In this document: positions 1,375-24,000 of the stretch, piece after piece
Numbering within the stretch: position 1 is the stretch's first letter
Layout of the letters: every line of letters begins with the position of its first letter
Origin: Aliterella atlantica CENA595
GTDB taxonomy: Bacteria; Cyanobacteriota; Cyanobacteriia; Cyanobacteriales; Chroococcidiopsidaceae
Reading direction: 5' to 3'
NCBI RefSeq assembly: GCF_000952155.1
Contig: NZ_JYON01000006.1
Span: 2,833 to 26,832, forward strand
DNA length: 24,000 nt
Program-made: the position numbers and the translations under genes
The notes under the pieces: model-generated
What the model saw: only the letters and a program-made list of their open reading frames with translations
Told to the model about the DNA's origin: nothing
Databases searched by the model: none

Positions 1375-1424
1375 AAAAAGTCTCAACCAACTCTCCCCCT
1401 TTACTGTCTGCGTCCTCTGCGTAC

Positions 1425-1464
1425 GCCAGTCGCACAGGTGGGGGAACCCCCGCACGGCGCTGGC
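1425..1464. repeat. GC-rich imperfect palindrome in the wzy-wzx spacer, flanked by TCCTCTGC direct repeats
   Basis: GCCAGTCGCACAGGTGGGGG-AA-CCCCCGCACGGCGCTGGC folds as an imperfect hairpin. TCCTCTGC occurs on both sides (1412-1419 and 1465-1472). A T-run follows at 1478-1483. It may be a small dispersed repeat or an attenuator. Only one copy is present in this window. Confidence 0.35.
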
Positions 1465-1495
1465 TCCTCTGCAGTTCGTTTTTCCAAACACATTA

Positions 1496-2761: not shown

Positions 2762-2796
2762 CGCGAATTACTCTTGTCGTTAACTTGGTAGCTGAG

Positions 2797-3816: not shown

Positions 3817-4135
3817 CTTAGGTGCAATCCACGATGCATACTATCATTACACTATCCCAAAACGTCAGAATTTTTTAATATTCTCAGTAGTTGTACGTTA
3901 ATGCGAATAATTACTGACAGTATTTTCCCATTGAATTGAGGTAAAAACCTAGCACAAAAAGCTAAATGATCGGTAAAAATTCAATTGTTTAAAGATATTA
4001 CGCTCAGTTAAATTTGTTTTGTAAAGTTGTTGTGTAGGTTAAATAAAGTAGTTATTCACAATCCAGAAAATACTTATTTGTTAAGCATCAACTTATACAG
4101 TGTTTGTTAAACGTAAAATTTAGCTAGTTATTAAT

Positions 4136-6265: not shown

Positions 6266-6294
6266 CAGGCTGTTTGTAGTAACAGCTTAACAGT

Positions 6295-7131
6295 CTAAAT
6301 TTTTACTTTATTACGCGGCGTACGAGCTTGAGGAATTAAATAGTTTTTCGTTCGATTTCCTAAATCGTATCCTTCCTCATGTATCGGCGCTTTATACAGG
6401 TTTAGTTTTTGCTGAATTATTAACCACAAAAAGGGTAAATCGTCTACTAAATATCTTTTCCATAACCTTTTTGGTTCTAACATCATTCTGTACAACCATT
6501 CTAAACCTGCATTACTCATCCATTTAGGACTTCTCTTGACTTTCCCTGCTTCAAAGTCAATTGTTGCACCAATAGCGAAAAATATTTGGATACTAGGTAA
6601 TTTATCTTTGTACTTACATATCCATTTTTCTTGCTTGGGCGAACCTACTCCCACAGCTAATACTGTTGCACCAGATCTATTGATTTTTTCAATTATGCGA
6701 TCGCATTCCTGTATATTATTCTCAAATCCATAAGATGGAGAATGAGCGCCGACAATAATATTTCTCCCCACTTTATTGTTGATTTGTTCTTGAGCGAGCT
6801 TGGCAACCCCAGCACCCGCTCCTAGTAAGAAGATTTTTACTTCACTATCTGCTTTATGGTAGTGACAAAAAGCTGGAAATAGGTCTGAGCCTGATATTTT
6901 TTCCTTGATTGGCGTACCTAAAAATTTAGATGCATAGTATAATATCTTGCTATCGCATAATTTGTAATCAGCACTACCATATACTCGCAAAAAGTCTTTA
7001 TCTGTCTGCAATCTTACTAAGTGATCTACGTTAGCGGTAAATACAACACCATTTGTTAGTTGCTCTAATACATCTGTTAGTTGTAAGCTGTCAATAGAAA
7101 TGTTTAATACATTAACTTTTTCCGCACTCAT
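6295..7131 (-). CDS. WecB/TagA/CpsF-family (GT26) glycosyltransferase
   Basis: 278-aa ORF. Family-typical blocks are FLLGAGAGVA...AHSPSYGF, GVGSPKQEKWI, and FAIGATIDFEAGKVKRSPKWMSNAGLEWLYRMMLEPKRLWKRYL. Confidence 0.85.
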   Translation of the reverse strand: MSAEKVNVLNISIDSLQLTDVLEQLTNGVVFTANVDHLVRLQTDKDFLRVYGSADYKLCDSKILYYASKFLGTPIKEKISGSDLFPAFCHYHKADSEVKIFLLGAGAGVAKLAQEQINNKVGRNIIVGAHSPSYGFENNIQECDRIIEKINRSGATVLAVGVGSPKQEKWICKYKDKLPSIQIFFAIGATIDFEAGKVKRSPKWMSNAGLEWLYRMMLEPKRLWKRYLVDDLPFLWLIIQQKLNLYKAPIHEEGYDLGNRTKNYLIPQARTPRNKVKI

Positions 7132-10416: not shown

Positions 10417-11029
10417 TTAAGATTGCTGCTCAAAAGCCTGTTTTACTGCCTCTAAATCTATACATAGTTGTTGGGCAATTTGCTCCACACTCATTCCTGC
10501 TTGCAACAGCAGAGGTACTGCTGCCAGTTTACCTTCTTTACGACCTTGCTCTAATCCTTGCTCTAGTCCTTGCTCTAGTCCTTGCTCTAGTCCTTCTTCT
10601 AAAGCCTCTTGGTAAACTTTAGTCTGCTTGAGTTCGCTTAATCCCAACATTTGTTCAATCTCCTGCCTGCTCAAGTTTGGAAACTTATAGACAAATACTG
10701 TTTCTACTAATTCTACAATTTTTCGCTGTTCGGCAGCATCTTTTAGTTCCTGTCTAGTTCTGCTAATTAGCTGTCTTGCTTGCTGCTGGGCAACATTTTC
10801 CTTAACGCCAATTAGTTGTAGCACTCCTAACCCTAGTGAGGCGCTAGCTATTTGTGTTGATAGCTCATCTAAATAGATGCGCTGCAAGCGAGGACTATTG
10901 GCAAAGTCTTGATACTGTGGTGGTAATCCTGGATCTAAACGACGTTTGGTGAATATTAGGATTCCTCGCCAGTCGTTTACAGGTTTATAGTCGTTCAAGT
11001 ACAAGAAGATTTCGCTAAAAAAGCTGGGG
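10417..11029 (-). CDS. Exon 2 of an intron-split Rpn-family (DUF2887/DUF4351-like) nuclease or putative transposase
   Basis: After the predicted 3' splice site (11030|11029) the frame reads ..PSFFSEIFLYLNDYKPVNDWRGILIF.. and continues to a C-terminal EQGL-repeat/helical tail typical of DUF4351. The first ~34 codons of the 237-aa track ORF (11030-11130) are intron domains V/VI, not coding sequence. Confidence 0.75.
10545..10596 (-). repeat. In-frame 12-nt tandem repeat (about 4.3 copies) encoding (GLEQ)n
   Basis: The plus strand reads CCTTGCTCTAAT, then CCTTGCTCTAGT three times, then CCTT. This translates on the minus strand to GLEQGLEQGLEQGLEQG. Confidence 0.85.
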
Positions 11030-11032
11030 ATT

Positions 11033-11104
11033 AAAGTCAGTGAAGGAGTCGCCCCCTCCACTGCTCTCCAAAACGGAACGTGATAGTTTCCGATCATTCC
11101 GCTC
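11033..11104 (-). ncRNA. Group II intron domains V and VI (catalytic hairpin and branch-site hairpin)
   Basis: Domain V is GAGCGGAAUGAUCG-GAAA-CUAUCA-CG-UUCCGUUU. It is 34 nt with an AGC triad, a 2-nt CG bulge on the 3' strand and a GAAA tetraloop. Domain VI has a 4-bp basal helix (AGAG/CUUU), bulged A 11037, an 11-bp upper helix (CAGUGGAGGGG/CUCCUUCACUG) and a GCGA loop. Confidence 0.8.
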
Positions 11105-11126
11105 CTCAGTAGTACGGTTGTTGTCA

Positions 11127-12941
11127 TCAATACGTCATTACCAACATATCGTCTTCCCAGGTAAACTTATCTGGAAATCCTGGTGGCTTTGGCTTAACAC
11201 TATTACAGTTAGATTTTGTACCATAACTGCCGTCAGTGGCAGTCTTTTTGTCGTGGCAGTGTCGATGGAGTAGTTGCCAATTGTTATACGAATTCTTACC
11301 ACCCAATGATGTCGGAATTATGTGGTCGACTTCTATCGGCTCTCCGTATGTAAAGTAGTTTTTGCAGTGGGCGCATTTTCCCTTTTGCCGCTTGAGTAGG
11401 GTTGCTATTCTTGCGGGGGTCTGTGGGTGCGTTCCCCTTCTTGAACTCCAATATAGCCAGTTTCCGTCATAAGGCGATGAATTACCTTTCACTTTGACAT
11501 GACGGGTAATTTCTGTTGAGTTATGTGGAATGAGTGTTAGGGAATTATTACCTTCCTTAGTAGCAAACGTCCAATTGTTGCCTTGTACTGTTTTAAAGTA
11601 TTTACGGCTTGTCCAACTTCTACCTTTTTTTCGATGACGGCGGCGACCCCATTTAAGCAGTTTCCAGAAAGACAAATGCCATAACCTTTTAAAGGTTTTA
11701 TGACTGGAGACAGTTGAAAAGTAGTTACACCAACCCCTTATAATTGGGCTTAGTATCTTGATTAAGGTTGCTTGGTCTAATCCCCGCGACCTATTTATTA
11801 TTCCAGCTATCTTTCTGTAGTGCCTTTTCTGGCTCTCCTTACTGGGGGTGATAATAGTTTTAAACCCTAGTAATCCGCCTCTATGACTACCTGATTGATA
11901 TTTGCCAACAGGGAATTGTTTGATGTTGAATCCGAGAAAATTAAACCCCGATTCTGTATCACCAAATTCATTCAGGGTGTGAGCGATTCTTGTTTTACTA
12001 GGTTTTAATTCTAACCCAATGCCGTTTAACCACTTTTCTATCTCTGTTTTACACAAATTTACTACTTCTATGTCTTTATGGAGAACAACGAAGTCGTCTG
12101 CGTATCTAACAAATGTAATCGATTTAAGCTTATCTCTAACACTCAATTGAGTGAAATCTGGTCGCTTCATATCTAATTTTGGGGCTAGACCCATGATTAG
12201 TTCTTCGATTCCATGTAGGGCGACGTTTGCCAGCAGGGGTGAGATAACTCCTCCTTGGGGCGTGCCTTCATTAGTAGGGAACAACTGTCTCCCATCCATT
12301 ACACCAGCTTTTAACCAAGCTCGGATTTGTCTTTGCAGGGTGGGATAGGTATTTAGTTTTGAGAGAAGTACATCGTGGTTGATGCGGTCGAAGCATTTAC
12401 TGATGTCGGCATCCAAGACGTACTTGGCTTTTTTATTTACCGCAATGTATATTGCTCCAATTGCATCATGGCATGAGCGTCCAGGGCGGAACCCGTAGGA
12501 ATTTGGTTCAAATCGCGCTTCCCATTCTGGCTCCATTGCCATTTTGACTAGCGCTTGCAAGGCTCGGTCGTACATTGTCGGTATTCCTAATGGTCTTTTT
12601 TCCTCACTTCCTGGTTTGGGTATCCAAACTCGGCGTGTTGGTCTGACCTTTGTCCCCAGTTTGATTTTATTCATTAGGGTGAGACGTTGCTTTGGGGATA
12701 GTGCCTTAACACCGTCCACTCCTGCCGTCTTCTTACCTTGATTGTCCTGAGTTACCCGACGAACCGATAATGCTCTTGCCGCCCAAGAACTTATCAATAA
12801 TTTCTGGAGTCTGCGAACTAGCTTGACGTTTCCACGACTAGACGCTTGGTATATCCGCTTTTGCAACTTAAAGACGCTACGTTCCAGCTTTTGCCAGTTG
12901 ATATCGCTCCATTCATACATCGGACATGATGCCGTGTTCAT
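11127..12941 (-). CDS. Group II intron-encoded protein: reverse transcriptase, maturase (X) domain and HNH endonuclease
   Basis: 604-aa ORF. RT blocks include the YADDFVV catalytic motif. The maturase region contains RGWCNYF. The C-terminal HNH region reads CAHCKNYF...VDHIIP...NNWQLLHRHCHDKKT. Confidence 0.95.
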   Translation of the reverse strand: MNTASCPMYEWSDINWQKLERSVFKLQKRIYQASSRGNVKLVRRLQKLLISSWAARALSVRRVTQDNQGKKTAGVDGVKALSPKQRLTLMNKIKLGTKVRPTRRVWIPKPGSEEKRPLGIPTMYDRALQALVKMAMEPEWEARFEPNSYGFRPGRSCHDAIGAIYIAVNKKAKYVLDADISKCFDRINHDVLLSKLNTYPTLQRQIRAWLKAGVMDGRQLFPTNEGTPQGGVISPLLANVALHGIEELIMGLAPKLDMKRPDFTQLSVRDKLKSITFVRYADDFVVLHKDIEVVNLCKTEIEKWLNGIGLELKPSKTRIAHTLNEFGDTESGFNFLGFNIKQFPVGKYQSGSHRGGLLGFKTIITPSKESQKRHYRKIAGIINRSRGLDQATLIKILSPIIRGWCNYFSTVSSHKTFKRLWHLSFWKLLKWGRRRHRKKGRSWTSRKYFKTVQGNNWTFATKEGNNSLTLIPHNSTEITRHVKVKGNSSPYDGNWLYWSSRRGTHPQTPARIATLLKRQKGKCAHCKNYFTYGEPIEVDHIIPTSLGGKNSYNNWQLLHRHCHDKKTATDGSYGTKSNCNSVKPKPPGFPDKFTWEDDMLVMTY

Positions 12942-13606
12942 AACTTATGCATTGCTACTTGTAGCTATACCTTCCGTATTACCGTGAGTCTGTTAGCTTA
13001 TCCTGGTTATTACAACTAGGCGTTTGCTTCTGACTCGATCTTTCCATTCCGTTACCTGACTTGTGCCAGATTTTTCGTCTTAGCTGACTGCTCGAAGTAT
13101 TCGACCTCTTCGAGAGTAGACGGATTGGTTACTTCGTTCCTCATTACCTTTGGTTTGTTCCGTTAGGATGTCATCTCTTCACCGAGCTTTTGGGTAACGT
13201 AGGTATGTCGGTTGGTAATCCTCATACCACCTTTTGCTTCTGCCCTTTTGGGACTTCCAGCGCGTATAGCCTTATTTCGCTGGTTCGGCGTAACGATGAT
13301 TCACACAATGACTTTGCTTTCGCTATCCATAGGAACTTGCTTACGGGATACCACTTTTAGGCTAGTAGCTCTTTTCCGCTTTTATCCCCGCTTCACCGAT
13401 TGAGGGCTAGTCGCTACAGTGGGGGATATGCTTTCACTCCTACGTCTGGAGGACAGGACTTGACGCTTTCTAGGATACTAACGCTCACCTGCAAGGTTAT
13501 GAAGTTATCATTTGCAAGGGATTAAAGTGCGAACTCAATCCTGTTGGATTACCCTACAAATGTCGCCCATCCCCCGATTTATCGGTTTCGAGCGAACGAA
13601 TCGCAC

Positions 13607-13836
13607 TACAAGTCGCCTTTTGTGTCTCGATAGCCTTGAATTTCCAGGAAATATATTGGTAAGTCGGTGGCATAAATAGGCGGAACTAAAATACCATCAA
13701 TCCGAAAGCTAGTCTGTTTGACTTCTTGGGATGCAAAACTGTAAGTTGATGTTCTCGGCGAATCGTTGCCGATGAGTTCAAATAGAATAGCGGGGTAAAG
13801 TTGAAACAGTTCGTAAAATAAGCTGTCTGTCTGCAC
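13607..13836 (-). CDS. Exon 1 of the intron-split Rpn-family (DUF2887-like) nuclease or putative transposase
   Basis: MQTDSLFYELFQLYPAILFELIGN...VKQTSFRIDGILVP...PIYFLEIQ matches the N-terminal pattern of cyanobacterial DUF2887/Rpn proteins as I recall it. The apparent TAG stop (13608-13606) spans the exon-intron junction (TA|G). Splicing gives TA|C, which is Tyr, in frame with exon 2. The spliced product is 280 aa. Confidence 0.75.
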
Positions 13837-13889: not shown

Positions 13890-14254
13890 GCGATCGCGCT
13901 ATAGTGAAATCCCCACTTGAGTTATAAAAAAGCGATCGCTCTTAGTTTTGGTATGATCGCGCCTCAGTAAAATCTCAACTTAAACCACAAATAAGCGATC
14001 GCACTTTAGTGAAATCTCAACTTGAACCACAAAAAGGCGATCGCGCTTAAGTCAAATCTCAACTTGAGCCACAAACAAGCGATCGCTCTTGGCATTGGTA
14101 AAAGCGATCGCGCTTCAGTAAAATCTCAACTTAAACTACAAAAAGGCGATCGCGCTTATGTGAAATCTCAACTTAAACTACAACAAAGCGATCGCTCCTG
14201 GTATTGTTAAAAGCGATCGCGCTTCAGTGAAATCTCGACTTGAGCCGCAATACA
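13890..14254. repeat. Tandem array of seven 42-bp units plus three 23-25-bp short units, each starting with HIP1 (GCGATCGC)
   Basis: Long-unit consensus is GCGATCGCGCTTCAGTGAAATCTCAACTTGAACCACAAAAAG. Long units start at 13890, ~13953 (degenerate HIP1), 13995, 14037, 14104, 14146 and 14213. Short units (GCGATCGCTCTTGGCATTGGTAAAA-like) start at 13932, 14079 and 14188. Units are contiguous with no unique spacers. Confidence 0.9.
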
Positions 14255-14300
14255 TAGCGTCACGAAAACTGAATGTTTTACTGCTCCAACCAAGCGGCTA

Positions 14301-14346
14301 AAAGAATGAGCGATCGCACTTCTGGTTATGCGATCGCTCATTCTTT
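14301..14346. other. Perfect 18-bp inverted repeat (hairpin) containing two HIP1 sites
   Basis: AAAGAATGAGCGATCGCA (14301-14318) and TGCGATCGCTCATTCTTT (14329-14346) are perfect reverse complements separated by a 10-nt loop. The hairpin lies just downstream of the tandem-repeat array and about 330 bp upstream of the pilin operon. No annotated gene ends here. Confidence 0.5.
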
Positions 14347-14680
14347 ATACTCCGTAACCTGCACAGGCGGGTTTTGTCTGTTTAGCCGTGAATTCTATTA
14401 TTTAGTTTAGAGTAGCTATTCTCTCTACATCTAAGCTAAGACTTGACTTTAGCCTAGTACCTGAAACAGCCTCTTCAATACATAAAGCTAATCTACATTC
14501 AACCGTTAATCTACGTAATTAATTACTTTAACTAAATTAATAGCGTACATTTGCGGTAGATATTCATATTTGCGACTTGCTACAACTATGTATAACTCTC
14601 TTGGCAGTGCAGTTATTAAAAGTTGCGGTTTTAATTTCCCTGGCAGAGTTTATTTATATTAAATAGCGGTCGTTGATTTT

Positions 14681-15256
14681 ATGAATAAAAACTTACTAAT
14701 GCTAGGAGGGCAAAAAGCGAAAAATAATGAGGGATTTACCCTAATTGAATTATTAGTAATTATATCTTTAATAGGTATTATGGCTGCATTTAGTGCGCCT
14801 TATATAAATTTTGGAGTTAACCCATTAAAAGATACTACTAATAGAGTTGCAAGCACCTTTAAACTGATGCGCGTTAAAGCAATGTCTCAAACTTCTGCTT
14901 ATCGGATCAAGCAAGCTACCTCAACTACGTTGAAAATAGAACGTAATAAATTGTGTTCTGATTCAACTGGTTGGACTGTAGATGGTAGCTTTGATTCAGA
15001 AGATTTAACTTTAACCGAAGCCAAAGATTTCAAAGGGGCAGCTAAAAATACTGTTATCGAAATTATAGCCGCAACTGAAAATAGTTCAAACATTACGCCT
15101 TTGATAGAGGCGACAGGTTCGCCAGGCTGGAGCCTTTGTTTCAATAGTAGGGGATTAGCAAATAAAACTTTAAAACTTACTATAAAAGATTTAAAAACTG
15201 CTAAAACGAAAGATATTGAGATATTTCAAGGAGGCGGAGTTCAAATTTATGAATAA
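14681..15256 (+). CDS. Prepilin-type minor pilin/pseudopilin, GspH/FimT(FimU)-like
   Basis: 191 aa. The leader MNKNLLMLGGQKAKNNEG is followed by FTLIELLVIISLIGIMAA, the class III signal G|FTLxE with a hydrophobic helix. It is the first gene of a four-gene pilin-like operon. Confidence 0.8.
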   Translation: MNKNLLMLGGQKAKNNEGFTLIELLVIISLIGIMAAFSAPYINFGVNPLKDTTNRVASTFKLMRVKAMSQTSAYRIKQATSTTLKIERNKLCSDSTGWTVDGSFDSEDLTLTEAKDFKGAAKNTVIEIIAATENSSNITPLIEATGSPGWSLCFNSRGLANKTLKLTIKDLKTAKTKDIEIFQGGGVQIYE

Positions 15257-15716
15257 AATTTTTGCTGGTAAAAATCAAGGGCTGTCATTGGTAGAAGCAT
15301 TAGTAGGAATGACAATTTTCTTGATTACTTTGGCATTCATGATTCCTTTACTTGCAACCAATCAATTTAATACAATCAATAGAGAAATCAAGACAGGAGC
15401 TATTTCTGTCTCGCAAAGAATTCTAGACGAGTTCCGCCAATCTCTAGACCAGCTACCCGCAGATGAGTGGGCAACAAAATTACCATTATCAGGAACAGAG
15501 ACTAAGTTACCTTTACCCTACCCCTCTGGCACTGATATTTCATCCATAACAGAGCTTGGTAAAACTTATAGCGCAAAAATTATTTATTGCGAGGTTATTT
15601 CTCCTGCTACTACTAATCCTAACTGTGATGCCAATACTAGACAAATAAAATTACAAGTGAACTACAATGGTCAACCGATTTATACTGTTGAAACAATTTA
15701 CACAAAGTTCCAATAA
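15249..15716 (+). CDS. Prepilin-type minor pilin, PilV-like
   Basis: The track ORF starts at 15216. ATG 15249 gives MNKIFAGKNQG|LSLVEALVGMTIFLITLAF, a prepilin signal with Glu at +5. This start overlaps the upstream stop codon by 8 nt, which suggests translational coupling. Confidence 0.7.
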   Translation: MNKIFAGKNQGLSLVEALVGMTIFLITLAFMIPLLATNQFNTINREIKTGAISVSQRILDEFRQSLDQLPADEWATKLPLSGTETKLPLPYPSGTDISSITELGKTYSAKIIYCEVISPATTNPNCDANTRQIKLQVNYNGQPIYTVETIYTKFQ

Positions 15717-16800
15717 AGGTTTTACACTACTGGAACTTTTGGTCACTTTAGTTGTAGCCTCAGTTATAACTGGGTTGGCACTCAAACTAATAGTCGATCA
15801 GCGCCAACTCTTTTTAAACGATCAAAGCCGTACTCAAGTTAATCAAAACTTACGAGCTTCTCTAGATTTAGTCGGTGCTGATATTAAACAAGCTGGCGAA
15901 CGACTAACAACAAGTACATTGCCAGTAGTGAGAGTCATAAATGGATCTGCGACCGATCCTAATGTTCCTGATGAGCTAGTATTGCAGCGTTTAGTCATTG
16001 CTGAAAGCCTACCAGTTTGTAAGACAGTTACTACTGGTACTACGACAAGTGAAATAGAAGTCTCTCAAAAAGGCGGTGCTGGATTGTGCAATGCCTCTTT
16101 TTCTAGTCCTACAGCCACTTTGCCTATTACCCTTAACCAGTGGAAAGATAGCCGTTGTGCTAAAGATGGTACTTCTGCTTGCGCCAGAGCTATAGATGTA
16201 AATCGCGCTACAGTCAGCAATCGATGTGTTGAGGAAAAGGATGGTACTGACAAAGAGTGCGTATGGGCTTATATTTACGATCCTGATACTAATCGAGGTG
16301 AGTTTTTCCTTTACGGTTTTGAAAGTCCTAAAGACACTCCAGATACGCCTACTAACGCTTATCGCGTGCATCGGGTTGATGGTGAAGCTTGGAAAAATAC
16401 ATACCCCTATGGTGTCCTGAGTTCTACTAATCCCACTAATCCTACTCTCTACATTTTGGAGCAGCGCCGCTATCGATTAAAAGACAATGTTTTAGAGTTA
16501 ATTCTTAATGAACAAATACCACCTCCATCTAAATCTACATCTGATTTTTTAGTTGACAACCAAACATCACCAATAAGACTTGTTAACCAACTAAGTAATT
16601 TTCAAGTAAAAGCTTTGATGCAAAGTGGCAACACACCACTTACTAGAGAAGATTTTAACAACACAGCTATTGACGACTGGAAGCAACTTAAAGCAATCAA
16701 GATAGATGTAACAGCTATAAACCCAGCACCTAATTCTACTAAAGTTCCTAACCTTACCGTATCTGCACAGTTTTTCCCACGCAACGTTTCTTCTAAGTAA
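15667..16800 (+). CDS. Prepilin-type minor pilin, PilW-like
   Basis: 377 aa. The leader MVNRFILLKQFTQSSNKG is followed by FTLLELLVTLVVASVITGLALKLIVDQRQLF...NLRASLDLVGADIKQAG, a PilW-like pattern. With this start it overlaps the upstream gene by 50 nt. A later TTG start is possible. Confidence 0.75.
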   Translation: MVNRFILLKQFTQSSNKGFTLLELLVTLVVASVITGLALKLIVDQRQLFLNDQSRTQVNQNLRASLDLVGADIKQAGERLTTSTLPVVRVINGSATDPNVPDELVLQRLVIAESLPVCKTVTTGTTTSEIEVSQKGGAGLCNASFSSPTATLPITLNQWKDSRCAKDGTSACARAIDVNRATVSNRCVEEKDGTDKECVWAYIYDPDTNRGEFFLYGFESPKDTPDTPTNAYRVHRVDGEAWKNTYPYGVLSSTNPTNPTLYILEQRRYRLKDNVLELILNEQIPPPSKSTSDFLVDNQTSPIRLVNQLSNFQVKALMQSGNTPLTREDFNNTAIDDWKQLKAIKIDVTAINPAPNSTKVPNLTVSAQFFPRNVSSK

Positions 16801-16811
16801 CAGATAAATTT

Positions 16812-19127
16812 ATGAAATACCAATATAAAAATTTTCAACAATTAATGCTGCTGAGGCTGGTGCGCTTACAAAAATATAACCATGAAGAATCAGGTTTTGT
16901 GCTAGTTATTGTAATTTCTATGGTGTTGATCCTGACATCTTTGCTAGCAGCCTACGGCTTACTTAGCAAAATTGAAACAGCAAGCACTAAATCTTCTGTG
17001 ACTAGCAACACAGGGTTTTATGCAGCAGAGGCTGGGCTTAACCTACGAGCTAAACAGGTTCGAGACAAATTTAATGGATTCAATCGTCCTACTGGCACTC
17101 CTCCTGGAACTGCCCCTGAATACCTTGATGCTTTACAAAAGTGTTTAAGTAATACTGGTAGTTTAGGCAGTGGTGATTTCATCTGTAAGCGCCAAACTTT
17201 TAACAACCAAGAATTATTAAGCTACGTCATTGAACATCCAGATAATTTTGACCCTACAAAAAATATTATACAGATTAATTCTGGCGAACCTTTTGCTGGC
17301 TTGAGCGCTCAAGAATATCGTTACGATGTTACATCAGTAGCACTCAATTCTCAGGAGCCAAGTGCCATACTAGGAATGCGTTTCAAAAGCCGATTGATAC
17401 CACTGTTTCAATTTGTTGTTTTCTACAACAATGACGCAGAATTTACTGTGCCACCAGATATGAACTTAAATGGTCCTATTCACAGTAACGGTGATTTGTA
17501 TCTAAACGTTGGTAACAGTCGTATTTTGACAATTAATGGTGTAGTTAGTACAGCAGGCAAATTATATCGTGGCGAGAAGGTAGCATCGCAATGTGGGGGT
17601 AAAGTTAATATCTATACGGTTCTTGACTCTGTATCTAGTATCAAAGAGCTTAGTTGTGGTAGTGGCAGAACTGAGTACACTCAAAGTCAAGTCAGTGATT
17701 GGAAGAAAAATATTCTTGTTACCGTCCCTAAATTAGAGGTTCCTGAACCTGATGCCTTAGATGCTAAAGCAGGAAAAGATTATTGGGACAAAGCAGACCT
17801 ACGAATTGTGCTTAAACTTGACTCTTCTAGTGGCAATCCAAGCGGTATTGAAATACGCAATCAAGATAAATCGGTAGACACGACGAAAACGAAAGCCCTT
17901 CTAGAGAGTTGCCCTACTAACACCACCACTACAACACTTAGAAATGAGTTAGATGGTACATCTAACTACGAGCAAAGTGACGTTGACCTGATAGTCAATT
18001 CAATTACTGGTTTTGCGGTTGGTAATGTAGTAAGAGTAGGAAATGATTATGATAGCAATATTATTACCAGTATAAATCCATTAACTAATACAATTAGATT
18101 GAAAAGGAGGCTAGGACACACTTATCAATCAGCTACTGTAGCCTCGAAAGATGACATCGTTAGTAAAGTGAGCGTCTCTACATCTAATACATTCTACAAT
18201 TATCGAGAAAAAAATGGAGGTACGACAGGCAATGATGGTACGTACATTCGTATGCTCAATGTTGACGTTCGAGGTCTGTTGGACTGTATTCATTCACAAA
18301 GTTTAATGGGTAGTAAAGCCTTGAATGATGTTACTGAAAACGGTTTAGTCTGGTTTCTGACTGTAGATGGACCTAATTCAGAAACAGATGTAAACTCTAG
18401 TACGGCTCCTAATAACTCCAATAATTATGCTGTACGCCTTTACAACGGTGACTATTTATATTCAGGTCAAAGTGGTGCACCAGAAATTAAAGGTTTGACG
18501 ATTGTTTCAGACCAAGCAGTATATATTCAAGGTAACTACAATCTTAAAGATGACTCAACAACTACTGGTATTAACGAAGGTGATAACTTAGCCACTACTA
18601 CTGTTACTGAAAGGTGGAGACCAGCCTCAATCCTTGCTGACACAATTAATATTCTCTCCAAAAAATGGCAATTAGATGATTCCAATGGTCGGACATATAG
18701 TACAAGTAATGTACCGTCAGGCACAATTCAATATGATGATTCTAGACGAACTGCTGAAGAAACAACCGTTAATGCAGCATTCTTGTCTGGAACCACAATT
18801 ACAGGTGGTAAAAATGGTACAGATGGTCAAGACAAGGGTAGCAATAGCAATAGTGGAGGTGTGAATAACTATCCTCGATTCCACGAACATTGGAATGGTA
18901 CTGTTAAATTTAACTATAAAGGGTCGTTTGTAAGTCTCAATGCACCGCGTCGCACTAATTCGCCATTCTGCGGTAGCTATGATGCAACCAACTGCAATAT
19001 TTATAGTCCTCCACAGCGTAACTGGGACTTCGATTCTGACTTCAAGAATGCTGCTAACCTACCACCACTTGCTCCTAGGTTTGTCTATTTAAGGCAGGAG
19101 GTTTTTTCTCGTAGCTTTGAGCGATAA
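16812..19127 (+). CDS. Large PilX-N-terminal-domain pilus-associated protein (771 aa)
   Basis: The N-terminus ..EESGFVLVIVISMVLILTSLLAAYGLL...FYAAEAGL resembles the PilX N-terminal domain and has no Glu at +5. The large C-terminal region is Thr/Asn-rich. It is the fourth gene of the pilin set and starts 11 nt after the PilW-like stop codon. Confidence 0.7.
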   Translation: MKYQYKNFQQLMLLRLVRLQKYNHEESGFVLVIVISMVLILTSLLAAYGLLSKIETASTKSSVTSNTGFYAAEAGLNLRAKQVRDKFNGFNRPTGTPPGTAPEYLDALQKCLSNTGSLGSGDFICKRQTFNNQELLSYVIEHPDNFDPTKNIIQINSGEPFAGLSAQEYRYDVTSVALNSQEPSAILGMRFKSRLIPLFQFVVFYNNDAEFTVPPDMNLNGPIHSNGDLYLNVGNSRILTINGVVSTAGKLYRGEKVASQCGGKVNIYTVLDSVSSIKELSCGSGRTEYTQSQVSDWKKNILVTVPKLEVPEPDALDAKAGKDYWDKADLRIVLKLDSSSGNPSGIEIRNQDKSVDTTKTKALLESCPTNTTTTTLRNELDGTSNYEQSDVDLIVNSITGFAVGNVVRVGNDYDSNIITSINPLTNTIRLKRRLGHTYQSATVASKDDIVSKVSVSTSNTFYNYREKNGGTTGNDGTYIRMLNVDVRGLLDCIHSQSLMGSKALNDVTENGLVWFLTVDGPNSETDVNSSTAPNNSNNYAVRLYNGDYLYSGQSGAPEIKGLTIVSDQAVYIQGNYNLKDDSTTTGINEGDNLATTTVTERWRPASILADTINILSKKWQLDDSNGRTYSTSNVPSGTIQYDDSRRTAEETTVNAAFLSGTTITGGKNGTDGQDKGSNSNSGGVNNYPRFHEHWNGTVKFNYKGSFVSLNAPRRTNSPFCGSYDATNCNIYSPPQRNWDFDSDFKNAANLPPLAPRFVYLRQEVFSRSFER

Positions 19128-19172
19128 TCACTTTTATAACGCCAGCCGTTCAGTAAAATCATTAACCTTGTA

Positions 19173-19216
19173 AAAGAAGGACTTGTCTAATAAAAACAAG
19201 TCCTTCTTTGCTTTTG
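19173..19216 (+). terminator. Rho-independent terminator after the PilX-like gene
   Basis: AAAGAAGGACTTGT (19173-19186) and ACAAGTCCTTCTTT (19196-19209) form a perfect 14-bp stem with a 9-nt loop. GCTTTTG follows. Confidence 0.7.
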
Positions 19217-19368
19217 CCTACTACCAAACTCAAAGCTAAAGTATAACTACGCTCAATGTTTAAGATTGAAGTCATTATTTATACCTTCAAACAGCAAGAT
19301 TTCCTACTAACATAGGTAATATATATCGTAGTTCACTATAGAGCCTAGCTCTTTGTAGGAAAGCAGTC

Positions 19369-22300
19369 ATGTCCAGCCGCAAGCAACGTCGGGTAGTTCA
19401 GAAGCGCGATCGCCAAATTTGGCAACTATCCGCTACAAACTGTAAACAGCATACGTCATGGCTGCTACGCTGCTCAATACTTAGCGATAAAAACTCCCAT
19501 TCATCTGGCTTCGTCTTGCCAACTGTAGCAATGGTGTCGCTAGTAGTCGTACTAATAACTACTGCGCTCGTATTGCGGGCTTTTGATCGCTCCAGAGAGG
19601 CTAGTAATGTCAGGGTAGATGCCGCAGTATCAAATGCTGCAAAACCTGGCATAGATCGCGCTAGAGCCAAAATAGATGCATTATTATCCGATCCGAGTTT
19701 GCCAAGAGACACTCCCACTGATACCGATTTTTACAATGCCCTGACTAGCAGCAGGTATGTATTAGGTGATGAAACACGCCTGAAACTGGTTTACGACATC
19801 AATAACAATAAAATTATTGAAAAACGACCTACAGCAACAACTCTAGAACAAGACGAAGCGATCGCAACTGCTTGGAAATTTCCAGTTGATACTGACAATA
19901 ATGGTAAATTCGATAGCTATACACTATACAGTATTGTCTTCCGCAGTCCCAACCGAGGACAAGATGGTAGGTTTGAGCGCTCTAGAAATCCTCTAGAAGC
20001 AAGAACTCCACCAATGAAAGGTGCGCTGAGTAGACGCTGCGAATATACTGCTGGTACTAGCCCTAACTTGGTAGGTGACTCTAGTTGGTACAAATCAGGT
20101 AGTAACCTAACCAAAAGCTTTTTTGCCTACACTGCCACAGTGCCAATTGATACTCTGCCTATATCTCCCAATGTAGGTGCTGGCAACTATGAAGTGTATA
20201 GAGGAAATCGAGGTTTTTCTGCCCTGGAGTTTCAGCAAGATCGCAGTAGAGTTCCCCTAAATAGCAATGCTGTTTTGTTTCAAAACGACCTGGAACTTAC
20301 TCCTGGTGTTGACTTTCGCATGAATGGCAGAATTTTTACAAATGCCAACTTACTGATCGGCGGGCATGAGGGTAAAGCGATTAGGCTCTATCAAATTAGT
20401 AGCAAAAACTCCTGCTTTTACAAAGAACAAAACAGTAAAATTACTGTCGGTGGCAACGTCGGTACAGGCAACGTAGCCGACGCACAAAATCAAACAGCGG
20501 TAACTGTCGATCTATTTAGAGGAGTAGGTAACGACCCAAGTACCTCCACAATCGATGGCAATAATAAATCTACAAGCGAAGTAGGAGGCAAAAGAGTAGG
20601 ATACAACGATGCCGCCTATAGCAAGCGGATCGGGGCAATGAAGCAGGCTATGCTAGCTTTTTCTACAACTAATCCTCCCACAGTTGCCAGCGTCAATAGC
20701 ATTACTCAGTACCCTTTTTCAGTTAAAGCAGCATTTAAAGCTAAGATTGAAGCACCTGGAGGTAGCAGCTTAAACGCTCAAGAAATTCTTGCCGAACAAG
20801 TTGAAACATACCTAAAAGATCGTACCCGTCGCGTTCCTTTTGCTGAAGTACCTGCCGCCGATGGGACAGGTGCTATTCTTCCAGGGGATAGCAATGGGAT
20901 TGATACAAGCTCTGGGATTGTAGAACCAATCGCTAAATGGCGAGAGCCTACAGACACTAATACTGGTTTAGCGCTAATTGCAGCCAACCTACAACAGACT
21001 CAGCCCGAACAGCAGAGAGAAGATGGTGTAGAGACATACTTAGGCGATCGCATTAATGTAGGTAACAACTTACCTGCTTACTGGAAAAATCTGACTAAAT
21101 ATGTTACAGGACCTTTTGAAAAGCAATTTTTAGGCAGCGCGGTTAAATGGACTAATCCTAGCGACGAAGAACGCTATCGAACTACTCAAGTAGTCGCTCT
21201 CCCAGATGTAGGTATATCTAATCGAGATGGTTTTTGGGAAGATGCAGCCGCTAGACAACCAGCAACTAAATTATCTAATGTAGGCGGTTTGAGGATAATA
21301 ACTGGGGCAGGAATTTATCGCAACTTAGCATCTACTTATACAGCTTTATCTGCTCCGTCTTTTCTTCCACTCCCTCCTACCATCCTTGATGGCAATAGAG
21401 CTATTCCTAATGCTCCACTTTTAGCAGGTGAAAGCTCATCTATTCCCTACACTTTAGTTTGGTCTGACACCATGCCTATGAGTGGTGGAGTCGATAACAG
21501 CAAAACACTAATCAATGAAAGTACAGCGCCAGCCGACTTGCGGATGAGAGCTACGGCTGTTTATCACTATGCAAACAATCCTGGAACTAGCCAGACTCCG
21601 ATCGCTTGTGTCAGCAGCTATTACGATCCGACAAACGCAACTACTGCTAAAAATAGAGTTAATTTTGATGGTGGATACGGCATCGATACTGCTAGCGGTA
21701 AGTCAAACAATGGTGTTGTCTATCCTACTCCCTACACCAGCGATACAGATAGGTTTAGTGCGATCGCCTCTTATTTGCCAGAGTTGAAAGCTCAAGCAAA
21801 ACTGATGTTTCCCAATGGGCGCGTCGTTAACGAACCTTTGCAGCAAGCCTTGCTCAAACTTAATGGTGGTGGCGGACTATTAGACAATACCAAACCCCTA
21901 AGTTTGGCGGAAAATTCAGCAATCGATACAGCTATTTGCGGTATCAAAATTTTGACCGATAGCTCCTTCAATCCCAGCACAGAGCCTATAGTGCCACATG
22001 GCGCAATTAGAGAAGCATCTTTTCTTAATGCTAGAGAAGTTCAAGCGATTCATAAGACGAATAATACGACTGACTACGATTTAGAACTAGAACAACGCCA
22101 GCCTTTAGAAGTACGAGTGACTGACCTCGATATGGGTCAACTTGCAGCTAAAACAATTGGGACAGCAAACCTTCAAGAATATCTTTTGCCTAACAGCGGT
22201 ATTATCTATGCTAGTCGAGACGATGCGCTGCTCGATCTAAGTGACACGAGCATAGAAAGAGAGTTACTTAGTTCTACCGACTTCAAACTCGACCCTACAC

Positions 22301-24000
22301 GCCGCCCAAACGGAATTAGGCTAATCAACGGTAGTAGTTTAGAACGAGATGATGATTATCGAGAAGAAGAAAAGGGACTAACTTTAGTTACCAATTTGCC
22401 AGCTTATATTCAAGGCGACTTTAACCTGCACCAACAGTCAGGCGATCGCACGCCTACTGAAGAATTTACCGATACCTTGGCAGATAACTGGAGCGATTTT
22501 TATACACGCAACCCAACACTCGATCCTAATTTTGCTTGTCGTAAGGGGCAAAGTGGGTGTGGTGGTAATGGCGATCGCTGGCGACCTGCAACTATCATCT
22601 CTGATGCCATGACGGTGCTATCAGGCAGTTTCCGCGATGGTTTCCGTGATGAAGGAGACTACGATCTCAATAACTATGCAGGTATTGCTCCTACTTTAAA
22701 TCGCACTAAAAACGGCTTGTGGAACAATAGCTTTGTTCCTAGTGCCTTATGGTGGGATACAGGCAATACAGACAATGCTTATCCTAATGAAAAAACTGAG
22801 GATAGTTATGTAGGTTCCTACCTAACTAATGCCGTGACACCGATCCAACGGCGCGTAAATGCACCTGAATATGTCATGGAAATTTGCCGTAAAGTCCCTG
22901 TCTCCGAATGTAGACCGAGCGATTGGCTAGTTGGCTACGATAATAACGGCGATGGAGATATCGATGATAATGGGGAAAGCGATGTTAAATCTGCAAATCT
23001 GCCCCAAAACGCTGATGTTACTCGCTTAGGTGCAGGTACTACTGCTAGCGCTGCTTTGCGACCTAGCGATCGCCGTTACGCTCGTCGGGTTGCATTCAAA
23101 CGTAGCACTGGCAATACACTAGAGTTATCTAATTGGTCTAGCCCTAACGAAGATAATATCACTCCAATAGCATTAGGAATAAATAATAGCGGTCAAGTTG
23201 CTGAATTTCCTTATACAGAAAATGTTCTGCCCAGAATAAGAAATAATGCTCTGTGGTTTAGAACAACAACTAATACTATTGGCGAACCATACAACAATCC
23301 TAGCTACGCAAACAATAGACCGCTAGCATATACAGGCAATACTAAATTTACGTCTCCTCTTACCCCTGAAATTGACAACGTAAATAGTCTCAACCTTCCA
23401 GAGAATAACCCTGCTTCTAGCTACACAGTTTGTACTAAAACTGCTGGTTCCTCTCAAAAACCGTTAGTCAATGATTCCACGCTTCTTGATGACGGAAATT
23501 GCGATCTTGACACAACCGTAGGGCAGCTAAATGCTTTAGATCCTAGTACATCTAATACAGATGCGATCGTTACACCTAGTCAAAAGGTAACTAATCAAAA
23601 GGGAAGCTTTGCTAGCGGGGAGGAAACAACTCTCACCCAGAGTGGTCGTATAAACGTTATCGATTTAGGCCTTGGAGCGCGGACTTTAGGAGAGGATAGT
23701 ACGAGAGTAACAACAATTAAATTAGTAGGCGATGAAGACTCTATATTTGTGTTCCAAAAAAAAGGAGGAATCTTAAACTTTGCTAGCAATTCAAATTGTA
23801 GCCGTCGTAACAATACCTGCACCCGCAAAGGTGTAGCTATTGAACTAGATGGGGTTGATCCTAACAATGTATTCTGGGCATTAAATGCAGATACTCAATG
23901 GAACGAAGTAGATTCTAACAGCCCTCATAGAATGAAGGGGAATTTTATTAGTAAAGGGGCTGTTAATAGTCTCAAAAATGTAGTGATAGAGGGTCGTCTT
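19369..24000 (+). CDS. Giant pilin-anchored protein, 5' partial in this window (more than 1544 codons, continues past 24000); possible HpsA (hormogonium polysaccharide) family
   Basis: This ORF is not in the supplied track. I read the frame beginning at ATG 19369 codon by codon to 24000 and found no TAA, TAG or TGA. An upstream in-frame TAG is at 19339-19341. Only short shadow ORFs lie on other frames across these 4.6 kb. A 47-aa basic leader is followed by G|FVLPTVAMVSLVVVLITTALVL. The HpsA assignment rests on my recollection of that family's N-terminus and is unverified. Confidence 0.8.
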   Translation, partial: MSSRKQRRVVQKRDRQIWQLSATNCKQHTSWLLRCSILSDKNSHSSGFVLPTVAMVSLVVVLITTALVLRAFDRSREASNVRVDAAVSNAAKPGIDRARAKIDALLSDPSLPRDTPTDTDFYNALTSSRYVLGDETRLKLVYDINNNKIIEKRPTATTLEQDEAIATAWKFPVDTDNNGKFDSYTLYSIVFRSPNRGQDGRFERSRNPLEARTPPMKGALSRRCEYTAGTSPNLVGDSSWYKSGSNLTKSFFAYTATVPIDTLPISPNVGAGNYEVYRGNRGFSALEFQQDRSRVPLNSNAVLFQNDLELTPGVDFRMNGRIFTNANLLIGGHEGKAIRLYQISSKNSCFYKEQNSKITVGGNVGTGNVADAQNQTAVTVDLFRGVGNDPSTSTIDGNNKSTSEVGGKRVGYNDAAYSKRIGAMKQAMLAFSTTNPPTVASVNSITQYPFSVKAAFKAKIEAPGGSSLNAQEILAEQVETYLKDRTRRVPFAEVPAADGTGAILPGDSNGIDTSSGIVEPIAKWREPTDTNTGLALIAANLQQTQPEQQREDGVETYLGDRINVGNNLPAYWKNLTKYVTGPFEKQFLGSAVKWTNPSDEERYRTTQVVALPDVGISNRDGFWEDAAARQPATKLSNVGGLRIITGAGIYRNLASTYTALSAPSFLPLPPTILDGNRAIPNAPLLAGESSSIPYTLVWSDTMPMSGGVDNSKTLINESTAPADLRMRATAVYHYANNPGTSQTPIACVSSYYDPTNATTAKNRVNFDGGYGIDTASGKSNNGVVYPTPYTSDTDRFSAIASYLPELKAQAKLMFPNGRVVNEPLQQALLKLNGGGGLLDNTKPLSLAENSAIDTAICGIKILTDSSFNPSTEPIVPHGAIREASFLNAREVQAIHKTNNTTDYDLELEQRQPLEVRVTDLDMGQLAAKTIGTANLQEYLLPNSGIIYASRDDALLDLSDTSIERELLSSTDFKLDPTRRPNGIRLINGSSLERDDDYREEEKGLTLVTNLPAYIQGDFNLHQQSGDRTPTEEFTDTLADNWSDFYTRNPTLDPNFACRKGQSGCGGNGDRWRPATIISDAMTVLSGSFRDGFRDEGDYDLNNYAGIAPTLNRTKNGLWNNSFVPSALWWDTGNTDNAYPNEKTEDSYVGSYLTNAVTPIQRRVNAPEYVMEICRKVPVSECRPSDWLVGYDNNGDGDIDDNGESDVKSANLPQNADVTRLGAGTTASAALRPSDRRYARRVAFKRSTGNTLELSNWSSPNEDNITPIALGINNSGQVAEFPYTENVLPRIRNNALWFRTTTNTIGEPYNNPSYANNRPLAYTGNTKFTSPLTPEIDNVNSLNLPENNPASSYTVCTKTAGSSQKPLVNDSTLLDDGNCDLDTTVGQLNALDPSTSNTDAIVTPSQKVTNQKGSFASGEETTLTQSGRINVIDLGLGARTLGEDSTRVTTIKLVGDEDSIFVFQKKGGILNFASNSNCSRRNNTCTRKGVAIELDGVDPNNVFWALNADTQWNEVDSNSPHRMKGNFISKGAVNSLKNVVIEGRL

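Follow-up and report, generated by a model that had tools for sequence, protein, structure and literature searches.

The window, i.e. the whole 24,000-nucleotide stretch of Aliterella atlantica CENA595 DNA that was analysed, holds, with a probability of roughly 0.8, two adjacent, separate core minor-pilin modules (tip/priming complexes) of the cyanobacterial type IV pilus. The first module (14681-19127) is, as judged from its sequence matches, an operon of the pilA9-pilA10-pilA11-pilA12(slr2018) type, and the second begins at 19369 with hpsA, behind which hpsB, hpsC, and a GspH-like hpsD would follow beyond the window by analogy with related loci. Gene content, family membership, paralogy, synteny, and the hairpin between the modules are read directly from the data, as is the fold of P4 from its model. 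A framework of two core sets, in which beta-solenoid PilX proteins are PilY1-like plugs, has already been published, and the window is a further instance of it; the same preprint terms the lineage of both modules EPS/motility-type, puts the Synechocystis pilA9-12-type locus in the EPS type, assigns HpsA to PilX_EPS, and describes cyanobacteria as generally lacking PilY1 (10.64898/2026.02.12.705559).

Table 1. Features of the two modules and their flanking regions, with positions counted along the window
Feature	Positions	Strand	Description
Conserved non-coding region upstream of P1	14399-14680	+	putative operon promoter and 5' UTR
P1	14681-15256	+	FimT/GspH-like minor pilin, PilA9-like, 191 aa, G|FTLIE
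P2	15249-15716	+	PilV-like minor pilin, PilA10-like, 155 aa from ATG, G|LSLVE
P3	15667-16800	+	PilW-like minor pilin, PilA11-like, 377 aa, G|FTLLE
P4	16812-19127	+	PilX-class cap pilin, Slr2018/PilA12-like, 771 aa, G28|FVLVI, without Glu5
Hairpin after P4	19173-19216	+	intrinsic-terminator-like, perfect 14-bp stem, 9-nt loop
Conserved hpsA upstream region	19217-19368	+	putative promoter and 5' UTR
hpsA, 5' 1543 of 1782 codons	19369-24000	+	ATG start, ORF runs off the window end

The gene coordinates bear out the packing described in the initial annotation, with overlaps of 8 nt (P1/P2) and 50 nt (P2/P3) and a gap of 11 nt (P3-P4), and the complete core set that it had read in FimT/GspH-, PilV-, PilW-, PilX-like order is confirmed. 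All five proteins (P1-P4 and HpsA) possess a Gly followed by a hydrophobic helix; the first three carry the expected G|(F/L)xLxE signals, and the translations of P4 and of the giant protein encoded downstream (G47|FVLPT) have, as had also been reported, no Glu at +5. Both are Glu5-less cap-type pilins, and their leaders, of 28 and 46 aa, are unusually long. Three pilins with class III signals (G|FxxxE) and one Glu5-less PilX-class protein are therefore combined in a single tight operon. The Pfam N_methyl profile, with a cutoff of 21.2 bits, recognizes P1 (28.3 bits) and P3 (28.7 bits), with P2 falling slightly under the cutoff at 20.6 bits; P2 is kept as the second cassette gene in most of the related loci, and the alternative TTG at 15216 in its ORF listing is probably not the start because the relatives call a protein of 156 aa. 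P1 matches GspH at E = 0.011 (Pfam) and 1.1e-7 (TIGR01708), P3 resembles HpsC in the N-terminal helix only, and in profile searches P2 and P3 fall short of the HpsB and HpsC models.

The suggested likeness to Synechocystis pilA9-pilA12 holds gene for gene. The sequence comparisons were made with the proteins of PCC 7338, whose locus reads Crp(-)/263/160/356/786 aa/ABC transporter, and BLASTP aligned each pair over the full length: P1 with the 263-aa product of the first gene (E = 9e-15), P2 with the 160-aa protein (E = 3e-7), P3 with the 356-aa protein (E = 2e-21), and P4 with the 786-aa protein (29% identity, E = 7e-87). The PCC 7338 locus was equated with pilA9-slr2019 (TU763) of PCC 6803 by its layout, namely by gene order, the sizes of the proteins, the ABC transporter, and a crp-like neighbour, which we take to lie divergently upstream of the pilA9 operon in PCC 6803. 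The gene for Slr2018 (773 aa) shares a transcript with pilA9-11 and slr2019, and the Synechocystis locus is needed for motility, whereas transformation does not require it (10.1101/2020.12.15.422378).

The designation of P4 as PilX-like proved right as to its class, but P4 is not a small PilX, since its 771 residues include, in the AlphaFold model (pLDDT 76.7), a large beta-rich insert carried by a pilin fold. The modelled order, a helix at 28-87, four strands within 126-197, many short strands, and a final long strand at 756-769, would fit a beta-solenoid inserted in a pilin fold. When the model was compared with the PDB by Foldseek, ComZ (6QVI) was the sole significant match (E = 6e-8), with no detectable sequence similarity between the two proteins. 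In ComZ, a large beta-solenoid interrupts the pilin fold ahead of the last strand, and a tip position has been argued for the protein; its pilin domain is nearest to that of GspK, and predictions do not count ComZ itself among the PilD substrates (PMC6561018). Given the modelled fold of P4 and its match to ComZ, the role of a tip plug could be filled within the four-gene set. On sequence comparison, the set does not fall in with the Com type (PilX_Com/PilV_Com), which is represented by Synechocystis PilX1-3 and PilA5, S. elongatus RntA and RntB, and Thermus ComZ and PilA2, as the likeness to ComZ is one of fold only and the set matches the pilA9-12 type.

By its profile match, the giant protein is identified as HpsA, a family that had a name before. 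Against the NCBIfam equivalog NF038301 (EPS_HpsA; curated cutoff 400 bits), the part within the window scores 1590.6 bits, and the full-length Aliterella protein P0121, which is 100% identical to that part and bears the NCBI name HpsA in Aliterella atlantica, scores 1862.8 bits over model positions 2-1502/1503. The protein is 48% identical to HpsA of Nostoc punctiforme and has an ice-binding-like stretch near residues 1444-1548, where Pfam Ice_binding gives 23.3 bits, below the Pfam cutoff. It had been described as unrelated-looking, a view that does not survive comparison with P4: the HpsA HMM matches P4 in 4 stretches (71.7 bits, E = 2.6e-20), BLASTP aligns the two in three collinear segments, hhalign gives a probability of 98.6% for the N-terminal region, and the consensus sequences of the two families have C-terminal motifs in common. 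On these alignments, P4 and HpsA are paralogues, HpsA being by far the larger. The identity of a PilY1/PilC tip adhesin was rejected for both proteins, in neither of which Pfam found the C-terminal beta-propeller domain of PilY1/PilC or the N-terminal vWA-like domain that PilY1 of P. aeruginosa also has. The guess that the giant protein might be linked to a pseudopilus and to polysaccharide agrees with the name HpsA, and a requirement of HpsA for motility and hormogonium polysaccharide is known from the genetics of N. punctiforme only (cited in PMC6495340).

The gene order of the relatives corrects the initial annotation on a further point, namely the placing of the giant gene in the PilY1 position, for it encodes the PilX-class subunit that opens a second set, hpsA-B-C-D. 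In N. punctiforme, hpsA is followed by genes for proteins of 226, 322, and 232 aa and then by three GT2 genes, and in Gloeocapsa PCC 7428 it is likewise the first gene, with hps pseudopilin genes behind it. In the closest relative contig (L089), the HpsA of which is 82% identical to that of the window, the genes after hpsA score 230 bits as HpsB (cutoff 150) and 373 bits as HpsC (cutoff 200), and in the relatives the hps set closes with a gene for a GspH-like pseudopilin. The order of hpsA and hpsB-D-type genes is also found in contigs L080, L082, L084, L086, and L088, such that every hpsA context that was read has its own HpsB-D downstream. As the window ends inside hpsA, the hpsB-D of Aliterella are expected beyond it, their placing being taken from the relatives.

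The two modules are separated by a spacer of 241 nt, and the hairpin in it, noted earlier as a strong terminator, is real. The hairpin folds at -19.6 kcal/mol (z = -5.7), 0 of 200 shuffled sequences folding equally well, and is followed by the T-rich tail TTTGCTTTTG; a consensus terminator scan missed it solely because its loop exceeds the 8 nt to which that scan is limited. It is conserved in L080 and L089, where the changes are wobble pairs or single mismatches only. The spacer has a mean column identity of 87% among three relatives, with the last 22 nt before the hpsA ATG invariant, and the two modules of L084 and L086 are more than 1 kb apart, with small ORFs between them. Most likely, then, hpsA has its own promoter, and read-through of the hairpin may also occur. 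Ahead of P1, DNA homology of the window with L080 and L089 begins at 14399/14398 and runs into the gene.

At the scale of genomes, this set of four genes recurs in unchanged order, as a cassette, in 53 of 79 related loci, which makes it no product of chance. The hosts include Thermus, Deinococcus, and Bdellovibrionota, and since the pilA9-12-type cassette is common at the level of sequence to Deinococcota, Bdellovibrionota, Binatia, and others, it appears not to be specific to cyanobacteria. The co-occurrence of this cassette with the giant gene, which had been proposed as a check, largely fails as regards adjacency: of the 41 genome loci that extend 6 kb or more beyond the cassette, none has hpsA next to it, and in N. 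punctiforme and Gloeocapsa PCC 7428 hpsA has no cassette upstream. The adjacency is lineage-restricted, being found in a few related contigs (L080, L084, L086, and L089); as these represent four or more diverged lineages, the two modules may to some extent be functionally coupled. The comparison with L080 is instructive in that DNA homology extends through the first 41 codons of hpsA and breaks off immediately ahead of the Gly of the cleavage site. The hpsA promoter region and the leader are thus conserved, but mature HpsA shares only 33% identity, and the HpsB-/HpsC-like proteins of L080 have NCBIfam scores far below those of L089, while P1-P4 remain 69-88% identical. This pattern would suggest a diversifying replacement of the tip adhesin in which recombination is anchored in the conserved leader. 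Perhaps, though this is less likely than not, the locus is part of a "pilus-tip island", in which two or three alternative priming/tip modules stand side by side and are exchanged as cassettes; modules of the pilA9-12 and hpsA-D types would be its members, joined in some relatives by one of the DUF7305 type.

It has to be noted that other readings of the locus can be put forward. The initial annotation saw in the giant protein a tip cargo or adhesin of the P1-P4 set replacing PilY1, which generally is missing in cyanobacteria (10.64898/2026.02.12.705559), and hpsA does lie directly downstream on the same strand, with a pilin-like anchor and with this adjacency repeated in four contigs. This model is nonetheless highly improbable, as HpsA is accompanied by its own HpsB-D in every context read, lacks a PilY1/PilC domain in the Pfam search, represents no new protein class but a paralogue of P4, and is set apart by the hairpin and spacer; the set, moreover, already has in P4 a cap that lacks Glu5 and carries a large beta-rich insert, and the genome loci without the adjacency count against it as well. 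The four genes might alternatively encode a competence-type (Com, ComZ-like) priming complex for short DNA-uptake pili, standing beside a motility/EPS set, as the fold match of P4 to the competence pilin ComZ, the homologous cassettes of the naturally transformable Thermus and Deinococcus, and the shortfall of P2 and P3 against the HpsB and HpsC models could be taken to indicate. That, too, is very unlikely, since the set matches the Synechocystis locus that motility needs and transformation does not, the HpsA HMM matches P4, the slr2018-like protein of PCC 7338, and a Thermus protein and does not match the DUF7305-type PilX of the third set of L084, and the cassette of Thermus igniterrae has no detectable match to T. 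thermophilus ComZ or other solved pilins beyond the N-terminal helix.

Somewhat less improbable, though still unlikely, is that one or both sets form a short T2SS-like pseudopilus pushing polysaccharide through the PilQ secretin instead of priming true pili. P1 and the last gene product of the hps set are GspH-like, and polysaccharide genes (Wzy, Wzx, GT2, and WecG) lie upstream in the window; in the profile search, however, this GT2 stays below the HpsE and HpsN cutoffs, and in Synechocystis either set alone is enough to prime PilA1 pili. A further point against it is that a 2025 review leaves it undecided whether HPS exits via PilQ or a Wza-type exporter found later (PMC12288463).

In the preferred reading of two tip modules, processing by the peptidase, the order of assembly, placement at the tip, and the physiological role are drawn from the protein families. 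Prepilin peptidase would cleave after the conserved Gly, whereupon the hydrophobic N-terminal helices would form a four-subunit complex in the inner membrane, with P1 as the GspH/FimT-like adaptor, P2 as the PilV-like and P3 as the PilW-like subunit, and the PilX-class P4 as the cap. The complex, presumably with the large Glu5-less subunit at the very tip, would prime polymerisation of the major pilin, and P4 or HpsA would serve, through its large beta-rich domain, as tip plug and adhesin, as PilY1 does in proteobacteria. With a large cap in each module, the pili would therefore have a module-specific tip, and the second module would be the counterpart of the one tied to motility and hormogonium polysaccharide in N. 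punctiforme.

The analysis sets aside the attractive but mistaken view that a minor-pilin set bears a new giant substitute for PilY1, and in its place clearly maps the genes of two paralogous tip modules that lie in tandem. It backs the recent proposal that the cyanobacterial tip plug is built into enlarged PilX-class pilins rather than PilY1. A unicellular cyanobacterium with pilA12-like and HpsA-type caps side by side is a natural test case in which to ask whether pili differ in adhesive or polysaccharide-related function according to the cap they carry, and the apparent swap of hpsA-D behind a conserved leader, together with the cassette in other phyla, offers modest leads on pilus-tip evolution.

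Among known systems, the GspH-GspI-GspJ-GspK set of type II secretion is paralleled by the GspH-like P1 and by the large Glu5-less tip subunit, although no T2SS genes lie nearby and the insert of P4 is beta-rich, whereas the GspK domain is alpha-helical. Thermus thermophilus ComZ (PDB 6QVI, with PilA2) resembles P4 in fold, but with low TM-scores, and it is a competence DNA receptor, whereas the nearest sequence relatives of P4 are of the motility type. Pseudomonas aeruginosa fimU-pilV-pilW-pilX-pilY1-pilE has four core minor pilins in the same order, as the initial annotation had recognized, the last of them without Glu5, and a comparable priming/tip-complex role is expected for the window set; unlike in P. 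aeruginosa, the PilX of the window has 771 aa with a built-in beta-rich domain, and in place of a PilY1 homologue, absent from the window, the next gene encodes a second PilX-class protein. The N. punctiforme hps locus (hpsA-hpsD, then hpsE-G and more) shares with the relatives of Aliterella the order of HpsB-like, HpsC-like, and GspH-like pseudopilins. It differs in that the glycosyltransferase genes behind it are absent after the hps set in L080 and L084, that it has no pilA9-12-type set directly upstream of hpsA, and that the J-box is found neither in 14399-14680 nor in the hpsA upstream region of the window; to our knowledge, Aliterella is unicellular and forms no hormogonia, unlike N. punctiforme. 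Compared with pilA9-pilA10-pilA11-slr2018(pilA12) (TU763) of Synechocystis PCC 6803, the window set has no slr2019-like ABC transporter after P4, where hpsA is located instead, and neither a crp-like gene upstream nor a CRP site in 14399-14680, and the identity of P1-P4 to the PCC 7338 proteins is only 23-29%; the order and tight packing of the genes are nevertheless the same, and the caps are of near-equal size, with 771 aa in P4 and 773 aa in Slr2018.

The locus consists of an annotated HpsA gene adjoining an operon of the pilA9-12 type, both of known kinds. The part of the giant protein lying in the window scores 1590.6 bits against NCBIfam NF038301 (HpsA), an equivalog model with a cutoff of 400, and a protein of 1782 aa recovered by homology search has 100% identity to this part and is named by NCBI 'hormogonium polysaccharide biosynthesis protein HpsA [Aliterella atlantica]'; in full length, the Aliterella HpsA reaches 1862.8 bits and spans the model end to end. 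The HpsA of N. punctiforme is 48% identical to the giant protein. By these measures the giant protein is HpsA, the gene having been annotated before, and the link to polysaccharide suggested for it in the initial annotation is thereby upheld. The ORFs, overlaps and gap, prepilin motifs, and hairpin described there were likewise all recovered by ORF listing, translation, and folding, with P1/P2 and P2/P3 overlapping by 8 and 50 nt and P3 and P4 separated by 11 nt. The Pfam N_methyl cutoff is exceeded by P1 and P3 and missed by P2 by 0.6 bits.

Coordinates of the minor-pilin genes and of the interrupted DUF2887/Rpn-family gene in the window
Feature	Position	Strand	Length	Prepilin motif	Basis
P1 (FimT/GspH-like)	14681-15256		191 aa	G|FTLIE	ORF listing and translation
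P2 (PilV-like)	15249-15716		155 aa counted from ATG	G|LSLVE	ORF listing and translation
P3 (PilW-like)	15667-16800		377 aa	G|FTLLE	ORF listing and translation
P4 (PilX class)	16812-19127		771 aa	G28|FVLVI, without Glu at +5	ORF listing and translation
hpsA (giant ORF)	19369, open at 24000		1543 codons in window	G47|FVLPT, without Glu at +5	
DUF2887/Rpn-family gene, exon 1	13836-13609	minus			
DUF2887/Rpn-family gene, exon 2	11034-10420	minus			
Group II intron ORF (RT, maturase, HNH)	11127-12941	minus			

The cyanobacterial core minor pilins have been split in a 2026 preprint into an EPS/motility set and a Com/competence set, with PilX_EPS including HpsA and the Synechocystis PilA12 (Slr2018) (10.64898/2026.02.12.705559). 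A third homology search, queried with the P4-family protein from Aphanothece, led to Synechocystis sp. PCC 7338, where an oppositely oriented crp-like gene is followed by genes for 263, 160, 356, and 786 aa and then by an ABC transporter, a layout that in gene order, sizes, and ABC transporter matches the pilA9-pilA10-pilA11-slr2018-slr2019 unit. In PCC 6803, a crp-like gene presumably lies upstream of the pilA9-slr2019 unit. Slr2018 itself is 773 aa long (10.1101/2020.12.15.422378).

An assignment of P1-P4 to the Com type had at first been favored because the sole PDB fold match of P4 is ComZ and because homologous cassettes occur in Thermus; it was dropped after all four proteins had been compared with the pilA9-slr2019-type locus of PCC 7338, whose counterparts they match over the full length (P1, 9e-15; P2, 3e-7; P3, 2e-21; P4, 7e-87). 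The HpsA HMM also scores the 786-aa product from Synechocystis at 53 bits and a Thermus igniterrae member at 92 bits, and gives no match to the DUF7305-type PilX of a third set found in L084. The full-length matches and this HMM pattern together identify P1-P4 as a pilA9-12-type set, as the initial annotation had proposed by comparison with Synechocystis, where that set is required for motility, bead binding, and flocculation and is dispensable for piliation and transformation (10.1101/2020.12.15.422378). As a check of set type, the deletion primers for tll2333-35 and tlr0680-82 from the preprint (10.64898/2026.02.12.705559) were run against a Thermosynechococcus locus (L022), with zero matches.

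The reading of the giant protein as a cargo in the PilY1 position of the P1-P4 set found no support, the protein being HpsA and the head of its own set in relatives. In N. punctiforme, hpsA is preceded by an unrelated metH-like gene and followed by genes for 226, 322, and 232 aa and then by three GT2 genes. In Gloeocapsa sp. PCC 7428 (L082), the WecG, HtpG, L28, and DUF2887 neighborhood is as in the window and leads directly into hpsA-BCD, and the four-gene cassette is absent from this hpsA neighborhood. In L089, the closest available relative (identity to the window proteins 70% for P4 and 82% for HpsA), the gene after hpsA scores 230 bits on the HpsB model (cutoff 150), and the set also holds a protein reaching 373 bits on the HpsC model (cutoff 200), together with a GspH-like pseudopilin; pseudopilin genes likewise follow hpsA in the source-related contigs L080, L084, and L086. 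Gene order and family scores in these genomes thus indicate that hpsA starts a separate minor-pilin set. The Gloeocapsa locus carries this set in tandem (L082 10001-25358), with hpsA-hpsB-hpsC(-hpsD) twice and HpsA of 1785 and 1734 aa.

Scanning species-representative genomes with the P4 family gave 79 loci, with all four genes in the same order at 53 and P3 plus one other cassette gene detectable at a further 13. Regular adjacency of the giant gene to the four-gene set across genomes was largely not borne out: hpsA follows the cassette at 0 of the 41 loci having at least 6 kb downstream. The two are adjacent only in source-related contigs (L080/L081, L084/L085, L086/L087, and L089), among which L084 and L086 have the two modules set apart by small ORFs and over 1 kb. 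Because of this distribution, the linkage is read as co-location of separate modules within a lineage, and the comparison argues against a conserved operon.

The 79 loci include Thermus, Meiothermus, Deinococcus, Trueperaceae, Bdellovibrionota, Binatia, and Gemmatimonadales; at the sequence level, pilA9-12-type cassettes beyond cyanobacteria were seen in these and other groups (L024, L028-L033, L036-L038, L040-L044, and L046-L079), with one Deinococcus copy on a plasmid (L078). The Thermus igniterrae cassette shows no sequence match to the solved T. thermophilus pilins, and no major pilin gene adjoins it. Upstream of the P1-P4-like cassette and divergent from it, L084 (2514-7355) and L086 (3149-7197) carry on the minus strand the third minor-pilin set, composed of a 473-477-aa PilX-like protein with DUF7305 and two small pilins, to which L084 adds a pilin of 722 aa whose C-terminal domain is DUF4082; lying beside the other two, it makes three sets in one island.

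Separate promoters for P1-P4 and hpsA are likely. Between the two lies a hairpin (19173-19216) whose 14-bp stem is fully paired and followed by a T-rich tail (-19.6 kcal/mol, z = -5.7, 0/200 shuffles as stable), which the pattern scan missed only because of its 9-nt loop. The 241-nt P4-hpsA spacer has a mean column identity of 87% among the window, L089, and L080, in which the hairpin is kept and the final 22 nt ahead of the ATG are invariant. Matches to the SigJ J-box (GGGaAtacT) occur in the window at chance level, with none in the hpsA upstream spacer, and a CRP site (TGTGA-N6-TCACA) is absent upstream of both P1 and hpsA, its window count being below chance expectation. A near-perfect CRP-like palindrome inside the P4 coding region (16994-17015, TGTGACTAGCAACACA), coinciding with a terminator-like hairpin of the pattern scan, is probably due to chance, since the window has fewer such sites than shuffled sequence.

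DNA homology between the window (19369-19493) and L080 (12540-12663) ends 41 codons into hpsA, just ahead of the predicted cleavage-site Gly. The 46-aa basic HpsA leader is near-identical and P1-P4 are 69-88% identical, whereas mature HpsA is only 33% identical. The HpsB- and HpsC-like proteins of L080 have NCBIfam scores far below those of L089. It looks as if the whole hpsA-D module had been swapped behind a conserved promoter and leader.

Farther upstream, the DUF2887/Rpn-family gene (10420-13836, minus strand) is interrupted by a group II intron (Rfam RF00029 match, 11030-11106); its L080 orthologue is uninterrupted (272 aa). Tandem repeats of about 42 nt, each with the cyanobacterial HIP1 palindrome GCGATCGC, lie between exon 1 and P1 (13889-14250), and window-L080 homology is broken over 13943-14399. 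A polysaccharide gene cluster (94-7131) encodes a Wzy_C-domain protein, a Wzx-type flippase, a GT2 glycosyltransferase, a BNR/F510_1955-like glycosylhydrolase, and a WecG-family transferase. Its genes were ruled out as Hps glycosyltransferases, with HpsE and HpsN scores far under cutoffs, and by these NCBIfam cutoffs its GT2 is no HpsE/HpsN orthologue.

P4 and HpsA are paralogues, as the HpsA HMM matches P4 in four stretches (E = 2.6e-20), BLASTP aligns the two in three collinear segments, hhalign of the family alignments gives 98.6% probability in the N-terminal region, and C-terminal motifs are common to both family consensus sequences. In the AlphaFold model of P4 (pLDDT 76.7, pTM 0.76), a long N-terminal helix (28-87) precedes four strands within 126-197, many short strands, and a last long strand (756-769). 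This predicted order is that expected of a ComZ-type pilin with an inserted solenoid, the Thermus ComZ having a pilin fold with its solenoid inserted ahead of the last strand (PMC6561018). In Foldseek against PDB, ComZ (6QVI) was the sole significant match (E = 6e-8), with low TM-scores of 0.18-0.29; PDB sequence searches in which the profile of the P4 family, the homologue from Thermus igniterrae, and P1-P3 served as queries found neither ComZ nor any other solved pilin past the N-terminal helix.

A β-solenoid has been found in every cyanobacterial PilX protein and was proposed to stand in for PilY1 as the tip plug (10.64898/2026.02.12.705559). For the hps pseudopilins, a direct role in exporting polysaccharide may come in addition to one in pili (PMC12288463). 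In the mechanism considered most likely here, each module would build a four-subunit priming complex, in which P4 or HpsA, the large subunit lacking Glu5, would be placed at the tip, with its large β-rich domain as plug and adhesin. The proposed priming mechanism rests on Synechocystis, where one set alone, whichever it is, primes PilA1 pili (10.64898/2026.02.12.705559), on the structural argument made for ComZ (PMC6561018), and on the genetics of hpsA-D in N. punctiforme, as far as these are cited in PMC6495340.
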